IMG/VR virus record: IMGVR_UViG_3300046786_000121
Location: 1-64,000 of that record
Source of the DNA: a virus
Reading direction: 5' to 3' (one strand)
DNA length: 64,000 bases
Below, in pieces: positions 49,174 to 54,977 of this stretch. Each line of letters begins with the position of its first letter. Within the stretch, counting starts at the first letter, position 1. The notes beneath the pieces are model-generated. The model searched no databases. It was not told the origin of the DNA and saw nothing but the letters and a program-made list of their open reading frames with translations. The translations under genes and the position numbers were made by a program.

Positions 49174-50760
49174 ATGGCAAAAAGTTTAGACGGCAATTTA
49201 ATTAAGAAAGCTCATGCGCAACAAAGGTATACCCTTGAAGAAGTAGAGCATCTAGAAAAGTGTATGGACCCAGTAACAGGACCATTATACTTTGCTAAAA
49301 ATTTCTTAAAAATTCAACATCCTACTAGAGGATCAATTCCCTTTGAACCTTTTGAGTATCAAGAAAGACTAATTCAAGCCTATCACGAAAACAAGCAATG
49401 TATTGCGATGTTACCTCGTCAGATGGGTAAGACAACATGTGCTTGTGCATACTTGTTATGGTACACTATGTTTGTACCTGAAGCACAAGTACTGATCGCT
49501 GCTCACAAATATGAAGGTGCGCAGGATATTATGAACCGTTACCGTTTTGGTTACGAGAACTTGCCAGACTTTATTCGTGCTGGTGTTTACTCGTACAACA
49601 GAAACACAATTGAATATGATAACGGATCACGTATTCAAGCAGTAACGACTACAGAGAACACTGGTCGTGGTAAATCTCTTTCACTAATTTATTGCGATGA
49701 GTTTGCATTCGTGCAACCGCCAGAGAAAGCCAAAGAGTTCTGGACTGCTTTGTCACCAACATTGTCAACTGGTGGTAAGTGTATTATTACATCTACTCCA
49801 AACTCAGACGAAGATCAATTTGCGTTAATTTGGACCGAAGCTAATAAACGCTTTGATGAGTTTGGAAATGAACAAGCATTAGGCACTAACGGATTCCATA
49901 GTTTCTTTGCACACTGGAATGAACACCCAGATAGAGATGAGACGTGGGCACAAACAGAACGTGCTAAAATTGGTGATGAACGTTTCCGTCGTGAATTTGA
50001 TTGTGAATTCTTGATTTTTGATGAAACGCTAATCAACGCAGTACGTCTTGCAGAGATTAAGGGTGTAGATCCTAAAATGACAATGGGTCAAACACGCTGG
50101 TATAAAGATATCGATCCACGATGTACATATCTAGTAGCATTAGATCCTAGTTTAGGTACAGGTGGAGACTATGGTGCTATTCAAGTATTTGAAATGCCTA
50201 GTATGACACAGGTAGCAGAATGGCATCATAACATGACTCCTATACAGAATCAAGTTAAGCACCTTCGAGAAATTTGCAAGTACATACACGATCGTGGACA
50301 AGAAAAGGGCGGAAATCCTCAAGTATACTTTAGTGTTGAAAATAACAACGTTGGTGAAAGTGCATTAATTTGTATTACAAATATGGGCGAAGAAAATATC
50401 CCCGGATTATTCCTAAGTGAACCAATTCGTAAGGGTCATGTTCGTAGATTCCGAAAAGGTTTCAACACTACACACAAAACAAAGATTGCTTCTTGCAGCC
50501 AATTTAAGCATATGTTAGAAACAGGTAAAATGATAATATATTCTAAACCCCTAGTTTCTGAGCTTAAAACCTTCGTAGCACACGGAGTAAGTTTTGGTGC
50601 TAAAACAGGCGAGCATGACGATTTAGTTAGTGCTACATTGCTGATTATTAGAATGGCAGAGATCCTAGCAGACTGGGATCCAAAGATTTACGAGAAAATG
50701 ACCGACAAGTTGACAGAAGAACAGCTACCAATGCCTATATTTGTCAGCAGCGGTTTTTGA
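49174..50760 (+). CDS. gp17: Terminase large subunit
   Basis: PRQMGKTT Walker A, LIYCDEFAF Walker B, ITSTPN, ALDPS.G, HDDLV nuclease motif. Confidence 0.95.
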   Translation: MAKSLDGNLIKKAHAQQRYTLEEVEHLEKCMDPVTGPLYFAKNFLKIQHPTRGSIPFEPFEYQERLIQAYHENKQCIAMLPRQMGKTTCACAYLLWYTMFVPEAQVLIAAHKYEGAQDIMNRYRFGYENLPDFIRAGVYSYNRNTIEYDNGSRIQAVTTTENTGRGKSLSLIYCDEFAFVQPPEKAKEFWTALSPTLSTGGKCIITSTPNSDEDQFALIWTEANKRFDEFGNEQALGTNGFHSFFAHWNEHPDRDETWAQTERAKIGDERFRREFDCEFLIFDETLINAVRLAEIKGVDPKMTMGQTRWYKDIDPRCTYLVALDPSLGTGGDYGAIQVFEMPSMTQVAEWHHNMTPIQNQVKHLREICKYIHDRGQEKGGNPQVYFSVENNNVGESALICITNMGEENIPGLFLSEPIRKGHVRRFRKGFNTTHKTKIASCSQFKHMLETGKMIIYSKPLVSELKTFVAHGVSFGAKTGEHDDLVSATLLIIRMAEILADWDPKIYEKMTDKLTEEQLPMPIFVSSGF

Positions 50761-50771
50761 TAAATATAACT

Positions 50772-52958
50772 ATGGACGCAACAAACAACATCGCCACCGA
50801 TTTATTCTACAAAGTTAGAAGCAGATTCCAAGGGCTAAAACTTGGCAACGAACTCGGTGAAATTACAATCAACCCAGAAGAAGCACGTTTCTTCGACTTT
50901 GACTACATGGAAGGTGAAAATCCTATTGGACATGTTAGTATTAGTCTTGCTGAAGCAAACTCTATGAAAGTCTATTTTAGTTCAGGCATTACAGAATCAA
51001 TGGACGATGGACAAAAGAATAGTTGGTATGGATTTTTGAAAGAATTAAGAATGTTTGCCAAGCGTAGATTAATGGCATTTGACACTAGAGATATTGCCAA
51101 AGATAATTTAGATAAAAGAGATTATGCGTTTTTGAGTCAACAAAATCAGCCTCAAAAACAAACTGTTAATTCTGTAGTAACCCCAGTTGGAGAATCAATT
51201 ATGAGTGAAAGTGCATTATATGGTAGCAAGACAATGAGCTATCAGAAACTAATGGACACTAGATTAATCATCAAACACAGCCATGCTGTTATGGATGACG
51301 CTGCACCTGGTGCAAGAAGCAGAAACATTAGTGCATTGTTTGTTGAAAATCAAGATGGCGAAAGATTTAAGTACCCTTTCATTCATCTAGCAGGTGCTCG
51401 TGCTATGCAACGTCACGTTGCTAATGGTGGTGTACCATACGATGAAATTGGTGAAAGTATTATTAAGATGAGCGAAGAAATTGCTCAACTAAAGAGTTTT
51501 GGTAACTATGTTAATCGTAATGATTTAATGAACAGCAGTACCAATAACATTGTTGAAAGAAGCACAGCACAACTAAACAACTTACGCGAAACCCTAGCAA
51601 AACTTGCAAAGCAAGGACACTATGAGGCTTATAAAGAATCTTTCCAGGCACAACCGCAAATGGAAGTTCCAGACGAAGTTGTAGAAGACTTTACAGAGAA
51701 ATTCACAGTCAGAAATTTTAAAGAAGATATCAAATCTGTATTCCCAGTTCTGTATAGACTGATGAAGGAATCAGAAATAGGCTACTCCGACATAGTCGCA
51801 ATGACCACACAACAGTCTATTAATAATGATGAAGAAATTGCTGAGAACAGTGCTTTTGATCGTTTTGAATCATGGGTAATGGGTCTCGGCGAATCCAGTG
51901 CTATTACTAGTCAAGAACCAGAAGAACAACAAGCTGCATTAAAGAGCCTACAAGAATTAGTAGGACAACATTTCCCAGCAGGTGTAGACGGCAGCAATGC
52001 TATCGAAAGCCTAAAAGGTATTATTGAAGACCCTGAACTATACAAAAGAATTAAGGCACAAGCCAGTGAAGATCCAGATAGCTGTGTACGCGGTTTAGTT
52101 AAGGATTGGTTAAGTTTAAATGCACCTGAGGTATTGGAGCAATTAGACTTCGGCGATTTTGTAGAAGAGCCGGTAGCAGCTGAAGTTCCAGCACCAGAAG
52201 CTGTTCCTCAAGAAAATGTTGAAGAAGCAGCAGCTACTACTGGGGATTACGAAATTGACGGCGATATGGCAACTGTGGAATTTGAAAGAGACGAAAATGG
52301 TATTCCTAGAGTAACTAAAGTTATGGTCGGAAGTACTGATATTACTGCTATTGAAAACTTAGAAGAAATTGCAAGTAATATCGACGAAGGCGAAGAATCT
52401 CCAATTGAAGATTATTATTTAATTTTAAGCATTGATATTGAAAGTGAATATAATGCAGCTGAGAGAGGATCGAGAGAATACGGATCTGGAATGCAATTAG
52501 AACCAGACTACGATGCGTATACTGAAGTTACTGGAATTACAGCATATGGCAACGGTAAAAAGGTTGCAATATACACTGACGATTTACCAGAAAGCACTCA
52601 AGAACAAGTTCAAAAAATTGCAGACGAACAACACACTGACGACGATTATGACGAACCAGATGATTACTATGATGATCGTTACGAAGGCAAAGAAGAACCC
52701 GCTGAACAAAAAAATCACGGTATTAACGTACAAGAACTTGCAGAATTTATTCACACATTCTACGATAGAGAATCAGGCACATTCCCTAAAGGCCCAGAAG
52801 GCGTTTGTACAATGGTAGGCAAAAAGTATGGCCCTCAGGCAGAACAAGTTGCTCGCAAATTTGTAGAAAGAATGGCTCCACAACAACAAGATCCACAATT
52901 GGCTGAATTGACTCGAATGAAACAACTATCGGGTATTAGTCAAGGCATTGGAATGTAA
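50772..52958 (+). CDS. Large acidic late protein, probably head-associated
   Basis: Start MDATNN at 50772, 5 nt after TAAATA; several E-S/E-A sites; Glu/Asp-rich C-terminal half. Confidence 0.55.
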   Translation: MDATNNIATDLFYKVRSRFQGLKLGNELGEITINPEEARFFDFDYMEGENPIGHVSISLAEANSMKVYFSSGITESMDDGQKNSWYGFLKELRMFAKRRLMAFDTRDIAKDNLDKRDYAFLSQQNQPQKQTVNSVVTPVGESIMSESALYGSKTMSYQKLMDTRLIIKHSHAVMDDAAPGARSRNISALFVENQDGERFKYPFIHLAGARAMQRHVANGGVPYDEIGESIIKMSEEIAQLKSFGNYVNRNDLMNSSTNNIVERSTAQLNNLRETLAKLAKQGHYEAYKESFQAQPQMEVPDEVVEDFTEKFTVRNFKEDIKSVFPVLYRLMKESEIGYSDIVAMTTQQSINNDEEIAENSAFDRFESWVMGLGESSAITSQEPEEQQAALKSLQELVGQHFPAGVDGSNAIESLKGIIEDPELYKRIKAQASEDPDSCVRGLVKDWLSLNAPEVLEQLDFGDFVEEPVAAEVPAPEAVPQENVEEAAATTGDYEIDGDMATVEFERDENGIPRVTKVMVGSTDITAIENLEEIASNIDEGEESPIEDYYLILSIDIESEYNAAERGSREYGSGMQLEPDYDAYTEVTGITAYGNGKKVAIYTDDLPESTQEQVQKIADEQHTDDDYDEPDDYYDDRYEGKEEPAEQKNHGINVQELAEFIHTFYDRESGTFPKGPEGVCTMVGKKYGPQAEQVARKFVERMAPQQQDPQLAELTRMKQLSGISQGIGM

Positions 52959-52998: not shown

Positions 52999-53022
52999 GG
53001 GCACTTAGGTGCCCTTTCTTTT
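52999..53022 (+). terminator. Rho-independent terminator
   Basis: GGGCAC-TTAG-GTGCCC-TTTCTTTT. Confidence 0.8.
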
Positions 53023-53085
53023 GACTTGATGTAAACTTTATTCTTGGCTAGCACGTTATATGTATATGCTAGGAGGCATTTATGT

Positions 53086-53391
53086 ATGAAACGTTTAGCT
53101 ATTACTCTGATTGCGAGTCTGACACTTCTAAGTGGAACAAGCCAAGCAAATCCGCACCATATGAACCGACATGGTCATTATCACAATGTTCATCGTGCAG
53201 ATTGGATTGCTCCTCTTGTGATAGGAAGCGTAGTAACGTATGCTCTAACAAGGCCCGCACCGCAGCCAGTAATAGTACAACAACCTCAGCAAGTGTATCC
53301 TAACATACCGCCAGCACCTATTGGCTACCATTATGAAAATATTTTGGATGCTAACTGTAATTGTTACAGGCTGGTTCTTGTTTCAAACTAA
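53086..53391 (+). CDS. Small exported/membrane protein (signal peptide, His-rich, Pro/Gln-rich)
   Basis: SD AGGAGG; MKRLAITLIASLTLLSGTSQA signal peptide; second hydrophobic stretch; C-terminal CNC. Confidence 0.6.
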   Translation: MKRLAITLIASLTLLSGTSQANPHHMNRHGHYHNVHRADWIAPLVIGSVVTYALTRPAPQPVIVQQPQQVYPNIPPAPIGYHYENILDANCNCYRLVLVSN

Positions 53392-53407
53392 CCTTAAAGG
53401 AAATATC

Positions 53408-53635
53408 ATGAAACTAATCGCAACTTTAATCGCATCAGCATTTGCAGTATCAGCATTTGCCGCAGAACCAGCTAAGGCTCCTGCAACACCTGCTCCGGCA
53501 GCAACAGCAACAGCTCCAGCTAAGGCAGAAGTTAAGAAAGAAGACGAACTTAAGAAAGGGGCAAAGCCTGCAAAAAGTACTCCTGCCAAGGACGAAAAGG
53601 CAGCAGCACCAGCTACTAAGCCAGCGTCCAAGTAA
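53408..53635 (+). CDS. Small exported Ala/Lys/Pro-rich protein (acid-shock-protein-like composition)
   Basis: SD AAGGA; MKLIATLIASAFAVSAFA signal peptide. Confidence 0.7.
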   Translation: MKLIATLIASAFAVSAFAAEPAKAPATPAPAATATAPAKAEVKKEDELKKGAKPAKSTPAKDEKAAAPATKPASK

Positions 53636-53828
53636 TTTAGGGTTAAACGAATCGGACGACGATTCGTGCAGCGAAGTTGATCTTCATGTTGCGTATCGCC
53701 GTCCGCAAGTTGTCACAGAAGAATACAATCTCATTGACGATGATTCAGAATTACCAAAACACATTACAGACAGACTAGCTCAAATAAGAGCGTTGGCACT
53801 GGAAAAATATAAAGAAGTCCATGGTTGA
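53636..53828 (+). CDS. Probable coding segment in the +1 frame with no clear start of its own
   Basis: Protein-like sequence (DDDSELPKHITDRLAQIRALALEKYKEVHG) whose stop lies within the terminator; the only upstream start is TTG 53442 inside the previous gene. Confidence 0.4.
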
Positions 53829-53843
53829 TACCTGGACTTTTTT
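53815..53843 (+). terminator. Rho-independent terminator
   Basis: AAGTCCA...TGGACTT followed by a T-tract. Confidence 0.65.
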
Positions 53844-53878
53844 ATTGGAAAAATAATCATTTTATCTGTGGCTTTTTG

Positions 53879-53907
53879 TTGACTCTGCTAAATAAATCGT
53901 GCATAAT
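53879..53907 (+). promoter_or_regulatory. Sigma70-type promoter with an embedded late box, upstream of gene 32
   Basis: TTGACT-17 nt-CATAAT; TAAATA at 53889-53894. Confidence 0.6.
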
Positions 53908-53966
53908 AGTTACTATGCACATTAAGGCATACAAGCATTTTAAGGCATATATAGGAGGCATATAAA

Positions 53967-54977
53967 ATGGCTACATTAGCAGAAATCCGTGCGAAACTTC
54001 AAGAAGCACAATCAAAGTCCACAGGACAATCCACCGGCGGTGGAGACAACGCAATTTACCCACATTGGAACATGGCCGAAGGCAAAGAAGCAGTAATTCG
54101 CTTGCTACCTGACGGTAATCCAAATAACACATTCTTCTGGGTAGAACGTGCAATGATCAAATTGCCGTTCGCAGGTATCAAAGGTGAAACAGATAGTCGT
54201 CCAGTTCAAGTGCAAGTTCCTTGCGTTGAAATGTACAACGACGGTTCAGTTTGCCCAATCCTTTCTGAAGTACGTGGTTGGTTCAAAGATAAGTCTTTGG
54301 AAGAAATGGGTCGTAAGTATTGGAAAAAGCGTAGTTATATTTTCCAAGGTTTTGTTGTTGAAGATCCTATCGGTGAAGACAAGAAGCCAGAAAACCCAAT
54401 CCGTCGATTCATTATCGGCCCACAAATCTATCAAATCATTCGTAGTGCTTTGATGGATCCAGAGTTGGATGAACTACCAACAGATTACATGAAAGGTGTT
54501 GACTTCCGTATTGCTAAAACTAGCAAGGGTGGTTTCGCTGATTATTCTACTAGTAAGTGGAGTCGTCGTGAACGTGCTCTAAGCGAAGTTGAAACAGCGG
54601 CTTTGGCATCTAACGAATTATTCAACTTGTCAGACTTCTTGCCAAAGAAGCCAACTGATGTTGAGTTGAAAGTTATGAAAGAAATGTTTGAAGCATCTGT
54701 TGACGGCGAGCCATATGATATGGAACGTTGGGGTCAATACTTCAAGCCAGCAGGCATGGGCGGTGGCGGTACTGCAACCGGTTCCACAACACAACGCTCT
54801 GCTCCTACCCAGGCAGCATCTGCTCCAGCAGATGAAGATGATGCGCCATTCGATACAACTCCAGTGGCTCCTGTAAAAGGTGTTAACCTAGCAGATGCAG
54901 CATCACCTGCAGGTGGTGAAGGTGCAAGTCGTGCGCAAGATATCCTTGCCATGATTCGTAACCGTCAAAAGCAATAA
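53967..54977 (+). CDS. gp32: Single-stranded DNA-binding protein
   Basis: AVIRLLP, CxxMY...CPI, YWKKRSY, G.DFRI.K...GG.ADYS.SKW; upstream of uvsX. Confidence 0.85.
   Translation: MATLAEIRAKLQEAQSKSTGQSTGGGDNAIYPHWNMAEGKEAVIRLLPDGNPNNTFFWVERAMIKLPFAGIKGETDSRPVQVQVPCVEMYNDGSVCPILSEVRGWFKDKSLEEMGRKYWKKRSYIFQGFVVEDPIGEDKKPENPIRRFIIGPQIYQIIRSALMDPELDELPTDYMKGVDFRIAKTSKGGFADYSTSKWSRRERALSEVETAALASNELFNLSDFLPKKPTDVELKVMKEMFEASVDGEPYDMERWGQYFKPAGMGGGGTATGSTTQRSAPTQAASAPADEDDAPFDTTPVAPVKGVNLADAASPAGGEGASRAQDILAMIRNRQKQ

Follow-up and report, generated by a model that had tools for sequence, protein, structure and literature searches.

A probable programmed +1 ribosomal frameshift yields two predicted secreted proteins from one gene of an uncultured giant phage

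How is a conserved protein segment expressed when its reading frame has no usable start codon of its own? This question is raised by a locus in a 64,000-nt stretch of viral DNA (positions 1 to 64,000 of IMG/VR record IMGVR_UViG_3300046786_000121; hereafter, the window), in which an open reading frame (ORF) for a predicted exported protein rich in Ala, Lys, and Pro, here called AKP, is followed in the +1 frame by further protein-like sequence. An original prediction, made from the letters of the window, had placed the end of the AKP ORF at a TAA (53633-35) with the protein-like +1 frame behind it, and our reanalysis confirmed these coordinates. It was likewise correct that the window's +1 frame holds neither ATG nor GTG after 53635, where the only candidate is a late TTG within the final helix. 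Upstream, however, the TTG at 53442, taken to be the only start, is the first of two, the second being at 53457, and both lie within the signal-peptide codons of AKP; the frame itself, said to be open from 53442, opens at 53430. The arrangement had been attributed either to a frameshift-extended isoform or to an overprinted gene, and both halves of that proposal hold, in that 20 codons, from the shift site to the TAA, would be read in both frames and the +1 frame would be expressed as a trans-frame fusion. Comparison with related loci makes it probable that one gene encodes two secreted proteins (secretion being predicted) by means of a programmed +1 ribosomal frameshift at 53573-53578.

In the model that we propose, translation would begin at the ATG at 53408, and most, or at least some, ribosomes would reach the TAA at 53633 and release the 75-aa AKP. 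In a fraction of ribosomes, peptidyl-tRNA-Lys would slip from the AAA at 53573-75 to the AAA at 53574-76, so that GTA (53577-79) would replace AGY (AGT or AGC) as the next codon in the A site, and reading would continue in the +1 frame to the TGA at 53826. The long product would be a 139-aa precursor with the same signal peptide and the first 38 mature residues, followed by the +1-encoded part, here called the module, which contains, in order, a basic linker (VLLPRTKRQQ...), an acidic stretch that is probably disordered, a Y-R-R-P motif, and a conserved C-terminal helix of predicted amphipathic character.

Related loci were collected by two routes, i.e., via the downstream gene for a single-strand DNA-binding protein (SSB), from which 80 loci were kept of at least 600 matching stretches, and via an alignment of the +1-frame module, from which 80 of 128 relatives were kept. 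Together with the window, these 160 loci gave 161 sources. The module was present in 120 of them, and in 112 of the 120 it lay in the +1 frame behind an AKP-type signal-peptide ORF, a recurrence that is far above chance. In three sources (L021, L138, and L161) the module had its own, different signal peptide in the same frame, in five it was cut at its 5' end by the end of the contig, and in none of the 120 was it in the -1 frame. Removal of identical sequences left 76 distinct +1 loci, with module sequences 17-64% identical to that of the window, which were assigned to group A (n = 22), group B (n = 40), and the window's own group, C (n = 14). The absence of a start is also not peculiar to the window: among those loci for which canonical starts were tabulated, at least nine (L013, L019, L033, L035, L038, L041, L046, L048, and L060) lack ATG, GTG, and TTG throughout the open +1 frame as far as the final helix. 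Hence the +1 relationship and the missing start, which the original prediction had proposed to check for conservation, are both conserved. Module variation is concentrated at +1-frame third positions, and no module broken by internal stops or indels was seen among the 120 sources, although the 76-locus set was built such that +1-frame stops downstream of the site are absent by construction.

The frame relationship is also not an artifact of one assembly. An independent DNA contig (X4 record 14) spans the entire stretch with two substitutions, both at zero-frame third positions, and no indel, and three RNA-library contigs (X5 record 16, X10 record 5, and X11 record 11, covering 53300-53754, 53493-53808, and 53492-53802, respectively) cross the site with 0 differences and 0 gaps. 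Given that no indel appears in the DNA or RNA-library contigs, the layout is not the result of a sequencing error, a recent indel, or dominant RNA editing.

Each of the 76 distinct +1 loci contains exactly one zero-frame AAA AGY (76/76, in 35 different 12-nt contexts), located 11-25 codons 5' of the zero-frame stop. The motif was found in none of the six distinct loci (0/6) in which a free-standing AKP gene has no module behind it, and it therefore appears to belong to the frameshift layout. Elsewhere in the AKP ORFs lysine is encoded by AAA 287 times and by AAG 222 times (34 loci). The end of the zero frame is also nearly invariant, with AAG as the last sense codon in 76/76 loci followed by TAA in 72 and TGA in four, while the module's own stop is TGA in 37, TAA in 37, and TAG in two. 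However, since all six module-less AKP genes end in AAG AAG TAA, the invariant AAG before the stop belongs to AKP and not to the shift. The two slip sites named by the original prediction fared differently, as AAA-A (53573-76) is kept in the relatives and AAA-GGG-G (53555-61) is not conserved and was rejected.

A 5' limit to the shift is set in four loci by stops in the +1 frame. In L018 and L103 a TAA abuts the +1 AAA (GTA AAA AGT), and in L113 and L114 a TGA lies three codons upstream of the site, so that in these loci the shift could not take place further 5'. Re-pairing of the P-site tRNA from AAA to AAA would be perfect in the +1 frame, where the codon following the shift is GTA in the window and GTG, GTC, or GCN in other loci. 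The run of A is 5 nt long in the window (53572-76) and 4 nt long in many loci (e.g., ACC AAA AGC and GTC AAA AGC); four A suffice, which argues against both RNA-polymerase slippage and a -2 shift. Longer runs were considered as sites in their own right and rejected: runs of at least six A occur in the overlap of only 25 of the 76 loci (at least seven in two), and in 24 of those 25 such a site scored worse than AAA_AGY in the junction test described below, although by a margin of only 2.4 bits.

If both frames were translated from the site onward, constraint should increase at that point. Past the site, the loci of the window's group (n = 14) become more alike at the nucleotide level, with identity going from 0.67 to 0.90, and so do those of group A (n = 22; 0.73 to 0.86). 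In both groups identity then exceeds that of the conserved helix, and in the window's group zero-frame third-position entropy falls from 0.75 to 0.28. Synonymous variation thus drops in the overlap, as the original prediction had expected of dual coding, and two overlapping frames under selection from the site on would give this pattern. Group B (40 loci) has no such jump (0.45 vs. 0.46), probably because indels spoil the ungapped comparison.

Independent evidence on the junction was obtained from homologs that do not use AKP. A profile search with the module found 378 relatives at E <= 1e-3 among 1.84 billion cluster representatives. Many are in-frame proteins of 108-196 aa (about 130 aa) with an N-terminal signal peptide of their own. 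Among the best 150 of the 378, a crude test recognized a genuine in-frame N-terminal signal peptide in 49 and visibly missed several more; about two thirds of the same 150 begin at L, V, or M inside the Gln/Leu/Lys/Arg-rich +1 text of the AKP tail and are, as judged from their sequences, truncated or spurious gene calls of the frameshift type. Median lengths were 133 aa for the predicted fusions and 128 aa for 50 in-frame proteins. The original prediction had reasoned that in-frame homologs would point to a sequencing error or a recent indel. Such homologs do exist, yet they constitute a separate, widespread family whose signal peptide is a different one, and they are not recent indel derivatives of the AKP gene. 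Since that family carries its own signal peptides, the module would appear to need an export signal, and here only a frameshift could supply it.

A hidden Markov model (HMM) was built from the 50 in-frame proteins, none of which has an AKP-type signal. The model preferred an AAA_A junction to a junction at the zero-frame stop in 75 of the 76 loci (mean difference, 10.1 bits; the remaining locus was a tie), and the window's fusion scored 78.7 bits with the former and 67.0 bits with the latter. When the junction was scanned along the gene, the score was highest on a plateau from -3 to +2 codons around AAA, was 3 bits lower at -14, and was 8 bits lower at +13 and beyond; for the window's group, the best junctions lay at 0 to +2 codons. 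The +1 text of the window's overlap, KVLLPRTKRQQHQLLSQRPSN, is comparable to the linkers KNLLPRTKRKQLSLLTQAPVSN of P0072 and LSRTKRQQVQILTQ of P0054, and that of P0076 matches too. In other groups, the +1 text KKPKLLRSNP compares with the in-frame linker PKPKLFRSNP. The +1 text 5' of the zero-frame stop is thus, by sequence comparison, homologous to the linker of the in-frame members. The related loci also provide natural controls, in the form of in-frame copies of the module and of AKP genes that have no module behind them, and in L021 and L161 the two genes occur separately, an AKP gene ending in AAG AAG TAA and a gene for a signal peptide plus module.

Several observations weigh against a frameshift at AAA AGY or limit the evidence for it. 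The loci are phylogenetically related, so that counts of the 76/76 type are not independent trials, and the RNA-library contigs are blind to rare slippage products and come from a library that may contain DNA. Zero-frame third positions stay the most variable up to the stop, which fits dual coding and, equally, a shift at the stop, and in P0138, a protein known from one 576-nt contig, the fusion of AKP (zero frame) and module falls at the stop and the linker motif is absent. For the 40 loci of group B, the HMM plateau extends from -2 to +5 codons, runs of at least six A occur in 24, and a second or alternative site is conceivable in eight of these A-run loci. AGT and AGC are common codons in the phage (20.3 and 13.5 per 1000 codons, respectively, in 66 long ORFs), and AAA-AGY occurs in frame 15 times in its other 66 long ORFs; therefore, the A-site codon is not a "hungry" one and the motif alone cannot give efficient shifting. 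Furthermore, no conserved upstream element like a Shine-Dalgarno (SD) sequence was found, and folding of the 48 nt 3' of the site is no more stable than that of codon-shuffled versions (mean z 0.07; z below -2 in 11 of 76 loci). The shift may be of low efficiency, or it may depend on the nascent Lys/Pro-rich peptide, the tRNA balance, or a phage factor. According to PMC10885494, +1 sites do not necessarily have stimulators, forward shifts share no known general motif, and a stretch of three or four identical bases is a plausible site. In favor of the site, AAA_A is under-used elsewhere in this phage: AAA-AGY encodes Lys-Ser 15 times against an expectation of 25.8, and a codon beginning with A follows AAA in 227 of 840 cases (27.0%) and AAG in 218 of 524 (41.6%), i.e., there is a mild avoidance of AAA-AGY.

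The strongest challenge to the position of the shift is a "shifty stop," in which ribosomes would move +1 at the end of the zero frame, from AAG with TAA in the A site, so that the fusion would keep the AKP tail and lose the basic linker. The constancy of AAG and TAA beside a varying module stop, the third-position variation that persists to the stop, and P0138, which is such a fusion, are all as this explanation would have it. However, the same AAG AAG TAA ending in all six AKP-only genes, the homology of +1 text before the stop (KPKLLRSNP, LPRTKRQQ) to in-frame linkers, and the lower junction scores in 75 of 76 loci (by 10.1 bits on average) argue for a shift upstream; moreover, tRNA-Lys would have to re-pair with AGU, four of the 76 loci have TGA instead, and P0138 comes from a single 576-nt contig. 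We consider a shift at the stop unlikely. It is less likely still that the +1 frame is an independent overprinted gene, started without any frameshift at a non-canonical codon (CTG, ATT, etc.) or at scattered +1 TTG or GTG codons. Some loci do have a GTG right after the +1 AAA or an ATG just before it, which gene callers have used (P0008 and P0022), and the window offers its TTGs at 53442 and 53457. Nevertheless, these starts are unconserved, AGC variants having GCG in place of GTG and at least nine loci being startless before the final helix, and they have no SD sequence 5' of them. The product of such a gene would also lack a signal peptide, unlike the in-frame relatives examined, and the occurrence of AAA AGY in 76/76 +1 loci and 0/6 AKP-only loci would be left unexplained.

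Transcriptional slippage is known from runs of about 8-9 or more bases, far longer than the run at the site. A frame change at the RNA level, through slippage of RNA polymerase on the A run at 53572-76 or through DNA heterogeneity, is improbable, to about the degree of an overprinted gene. Slippage on A/T runs is a known route to trans-frame proteins, as described in PMC5009743, and a minority of slipped transcripts would be compatible with the RNA contigs. Against this, the window's run consists of 5 A and that of many loci of 4, and three RNA-library contigs and one independent DNA contig are without an indel at the site. That the downstream frame might be the decaying, unexpressed remnant of a once in-frame gene is scarcely credible. 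The frame is open and startless in 76 distinct loci at 17-64% module identity to the window, its motifs and helix are conserved, it varies at +1-frame third positions, no stop or indel inside the module was seen in the 120 sources, and purifying selection is evident. Long-range bypassing from AAG was also considered and rejected, since coding-type variation in the +1 frame begins directly after the stop.

A few proteins appear to combine AKP and module without any shift. In P0012, P0031, and P0138, the module follows an AKP-type N-terminus in the same frame, with a different join point in each; each exact fusion occurs on one short contig (576-1176 nt), and none was used as support. Either they are natural variants in which a one-base indel makes the frameshift unnecessary, or they stem from errors of assembly.

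The frameshift gene was also found in two near-complete relatives, G002 (343.6 kb, 99% complete) and G003 (315.8 kb, 91% complete), where it is nested within a phage tRNA array of 31 and 26 tRNA genes, respectively (L168:900-2530 and L172:880-2410). It is flanked in both by tRNA-Ile(GAU) and tRNA-Ala(UGC) and adjoined by a phage-encoded permuted transfer-messenger RNA with the tag ANDEVYALAA or ANDELYALAA, and the sole Lys tRNA anticodon that these genomes encode is UUU. This setting suggests that the shift may be linked to the supply of tRNAs by the phage itself. One could imagine the site as a sensor of that supply, the shift ratio being set by the phage's tRNAs rather than fixed: an increase in phage tRNA-Lys, tRNA-Val, and tRNA-Ala over tRNA-Ser(GCU) would send more ribosomes into the +1 frame, and while the phage takes over host translation, the helix-bearing fusion would replace the short AKP as the output. 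The idea arises because the gene lies in a tRNA array, the sole Lys tRNA is UUU, the first +1 codon is for Ala (GCN) or Val (GUN), and the site is free of stimulators, and we hold it to be a speculative and rather unlikely one. A phage tRNA with an odd anticodon loop was rejected as the cause of shifting, as neither the window nor the whole 95.8-kb record, which is an estimated 27% complete, contains any tRNA gene. ARAGORN also reported, at L163:802-876 of G002, a tRNA with anticodon CUA, labelled "Pyl," which is possibly an amber-suppressor tRNA; TAG may be recoded in part of the G002 genes.

To our knowledge, utilized +1 frameshifts in bacteria and bacterial viruses are few. Our literature search turned up neither an account of this gene nor one of a +1 shift at AAA_AGY, and "AAA AGU" and "AAA AGC" are both absent from the part of the review PMC5009743 that was searched. 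Among the cases described in that review, the nearest parallels are tsh of Listeria phages PSA, A118, and A500 and cps of PSA, in which tailed phages likewise make short and extended proteins by a P-site +1 slip on identical bases; their sites are CCC_UGA or ACA_CCC, a pseudoknot or stop serves as the pause, and the genes are structural (capsid and tail). At the window's locus, by contrast, the A-site codon of AAA_AGY is a sense codon, we could find no stimulator, and the product is a small, predicted secreted protein. In prfB, which encodes release factor 2, an obligatory +1 shift gives access to the main conserved part of the protein and is widely conserved, as would be the case here, but there the shift takes place on CUU_U while UGA occupies the A site, and an SD-like element lies 3 nt before the site (PMC5009743 and PMC10885494). 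At the window's locus, a stop-codon site is disfavored and no conserved SD-like element is present. Of the prfB and Listeria phage +1 cases described there, that of PSA cps depends on a 3' pseudoknot and the others on a stop codon. The yeast element Ty3 (GCG_AGU_U) shares AGU as the zero-frame A-site codon, but it is a eukaryotic retroelement in which AGU is slowly decoded and the P-site tRNA does not slip (PMC5009743). At the locus described here, AGY is common and the P-site AAA could re-pair perfectly in the +1 frame.

The dnaX and Mg-chelatase cases resemble the proposed shift in relying on a slippery single tRNA-Lys(UUU) on runs of A and in giving two products per gene. Frameshifting in dnaX is a -1 tandem slip stimulated by a downstream stem-loop and an upstream SD sequence, while the window's locus would shift by +1 and need only four A. 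The G/GT tail assembly chaperone of phage lambda, which PMC10885494 also mentions, is the textbook example of a conserved phage frameshift with a fixed ratio of short to extended product, but it is a -1 shift in a tail assembly gene that is unrelated in sequence and function. Lambda Rz/Rz1 comprises two exported phage proteins in overlapping frames, the second in +1, and Rz1 has its own start and lipoprotein signal, whereas the window's +1 part has neither a start nor a signal of its own. The locus would seem to work like the known +1 frameshifts of phages and bacteria, its distinguishing features being a sense-sense Lys site, the lack of a recognizable stimulator, and a non-structural, probably exported protein. 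The setting, a large group of uncultured freshwater giant phages, is a further difference from these cases. Since gene callers split or truncate the gene, a predicted secreted protein of 130-140 aa is missing from annotation. The locus may furthermore serve as an example of two secreted-protein genes that merged by overprinting and share one start and one signal peptide.

AKP appears to be a short, exported, low-complexity basic peptide; by eye, its signal peptide has an n-region MK, a hydrophobic core, and A-x-A. The in-frame family is characterized by a signal peptide and basic linker, followed by an acidic stretch, the motif [GA]YRRP, and a helix of the pattern ...RL..AR..A...Y; at the window's locus, only the frameshift product would combine all of these features. 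AlphaFold2, run on alignment A2 (107 sequences), predicted the C-terminal helix at residues 62-83 (22 residues) with a block predicted local distance difference test (pLDDT) score of 94-98, and the rest of the module as largely unstructured (mean pLDDT 74.9; predicted template modeling score 0.35). In alignments A1 and A2, L and R of the helix are invariant and R, A, and A nearly so. Searches of Pfam and PHROG assigned no family to AKP, the module, or the secreted module family, and the ESM Atlas gave no usable match to the module. Positions 9-41 of Pfam DUF3619 (PF12279) match the helix at 14.4-15.3 bits (E 0.03-0.05), below the gathering threshold of 22.2, and such sub-threshold matches recur in four proteins (the window helix, P0047, P0054, and P0063). 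A tentative interpretation is that the fusion might be a periplasmic protein with a helix that docks on a partner or on the membrane.

An RNA hairpin of 10 bp is present in group A (22 loci, alignment A3; L027:937-994), in the +1 coding region about 17 nt past the zero-frame stop. Six of its 10 pairs are kept by two-sided changes, e.g., TTC/GAA to CTC/GAG, which combines a Phe/Leu change with a synonymous Glu change. As it lies about 75-85 nt from AAA AGY, it is too distant to stimulate the shift, and it has no conserved counterpart in the window's group; a hairpin at 53649-53667 is specific to the window.

The features of the locus are listed in Table 1. The +1-frame stop sits in the loop of the terminator hairpin. 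Another terminator lies at 52999-53014, and between the two are two small genes, AKP and ORF101.

Table 1. Features of the frameshift locus in the window.
Feature	Coordinates	Strand	Remarks
Shine-Dalgarno-like AAGGA	53397..53401	+	6 nt 5' of ATG 53408; read from sequence
Zero-frame ORF (AKP)	53408..53635	+	75 aa, TAA 53633-35; predicted signal peptide and Ala/Lys/Pro/Glu-rich tail
Predicted Sec-type signal peptide MKLIATLIASAFAVSAFA	53408..53461	+	Likely cleavage after AFA; by inspection
Proposed +1 shift site AAA AGT	53573..53578	+	Candidate; comparative evidence
Putative dual-coding overlap	53574..53635	+	Zero frame KSTPAKDEKAAAPATKPASK, then stop; +1 frame KVLLPRTKRQQHQLLSQRPSN
+1-frame coding part of predicted fusion	53574..53828	+	84 codons and TGA 53826-28
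Conserved C-terminal amphipathic helix PKHITDRLAQIRALALEKYKEV (predicted)	53757..53822	+	AlphaFold2, alignment
Intrinsic terminator, hairpin and T run	53809..53845	+	dG -18.2 kcal/mol, z -5.51; 0/200 shuffles fold as well

ORF101 (53086-53391) encodes a second small protein of predicted export. Its signal peptide, which ends in TSQA, precedes a His-rich segment HHMNRHGHYHNVH, a hydrophobic stretch, and a tail rich in Pro and Gln. The protein is kept in L019, L042, and L060 and, more distantly, in L021, and its signal peptide is similar to that of the in-frame module genes (MKRLA...TSQAN). An 82-aa antisense ORF (53383-53631, minus strand) over the Ala-rich region was dismissed as a composition artifact of GCN-rich codons, unsupported as a gene.

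The source record is a 95.8-kb fragment of an uncultured phage. Downstream of the locus, 53967-54977 encodes a gp32-type SSB (phrog_1192, E 5e-60; PF08804), and an ORF further downstream resembles, by eye only, a UvsX/RecA-like recombinase. The closest cultured relatives by SSB protein are jumbo phages, i.e., the Pseudomonas PA5oct group (45.7% identity), Sinorhizobium phage Phosso, and Klebsiella phage RaK2. No isolate relative of the locus itself was found, as blastn with 53000-54000 went unmatched and tblastn with the module and with P0001 gave no match in 50,697 phage records. A 733-aa protein (50757-52958) with an acidic, variable C-terminal half matches phrog_13484, a virion structural protein (E 3e-14), and its gene is syntenic, lying upstream of the small genes in most of the related loci.

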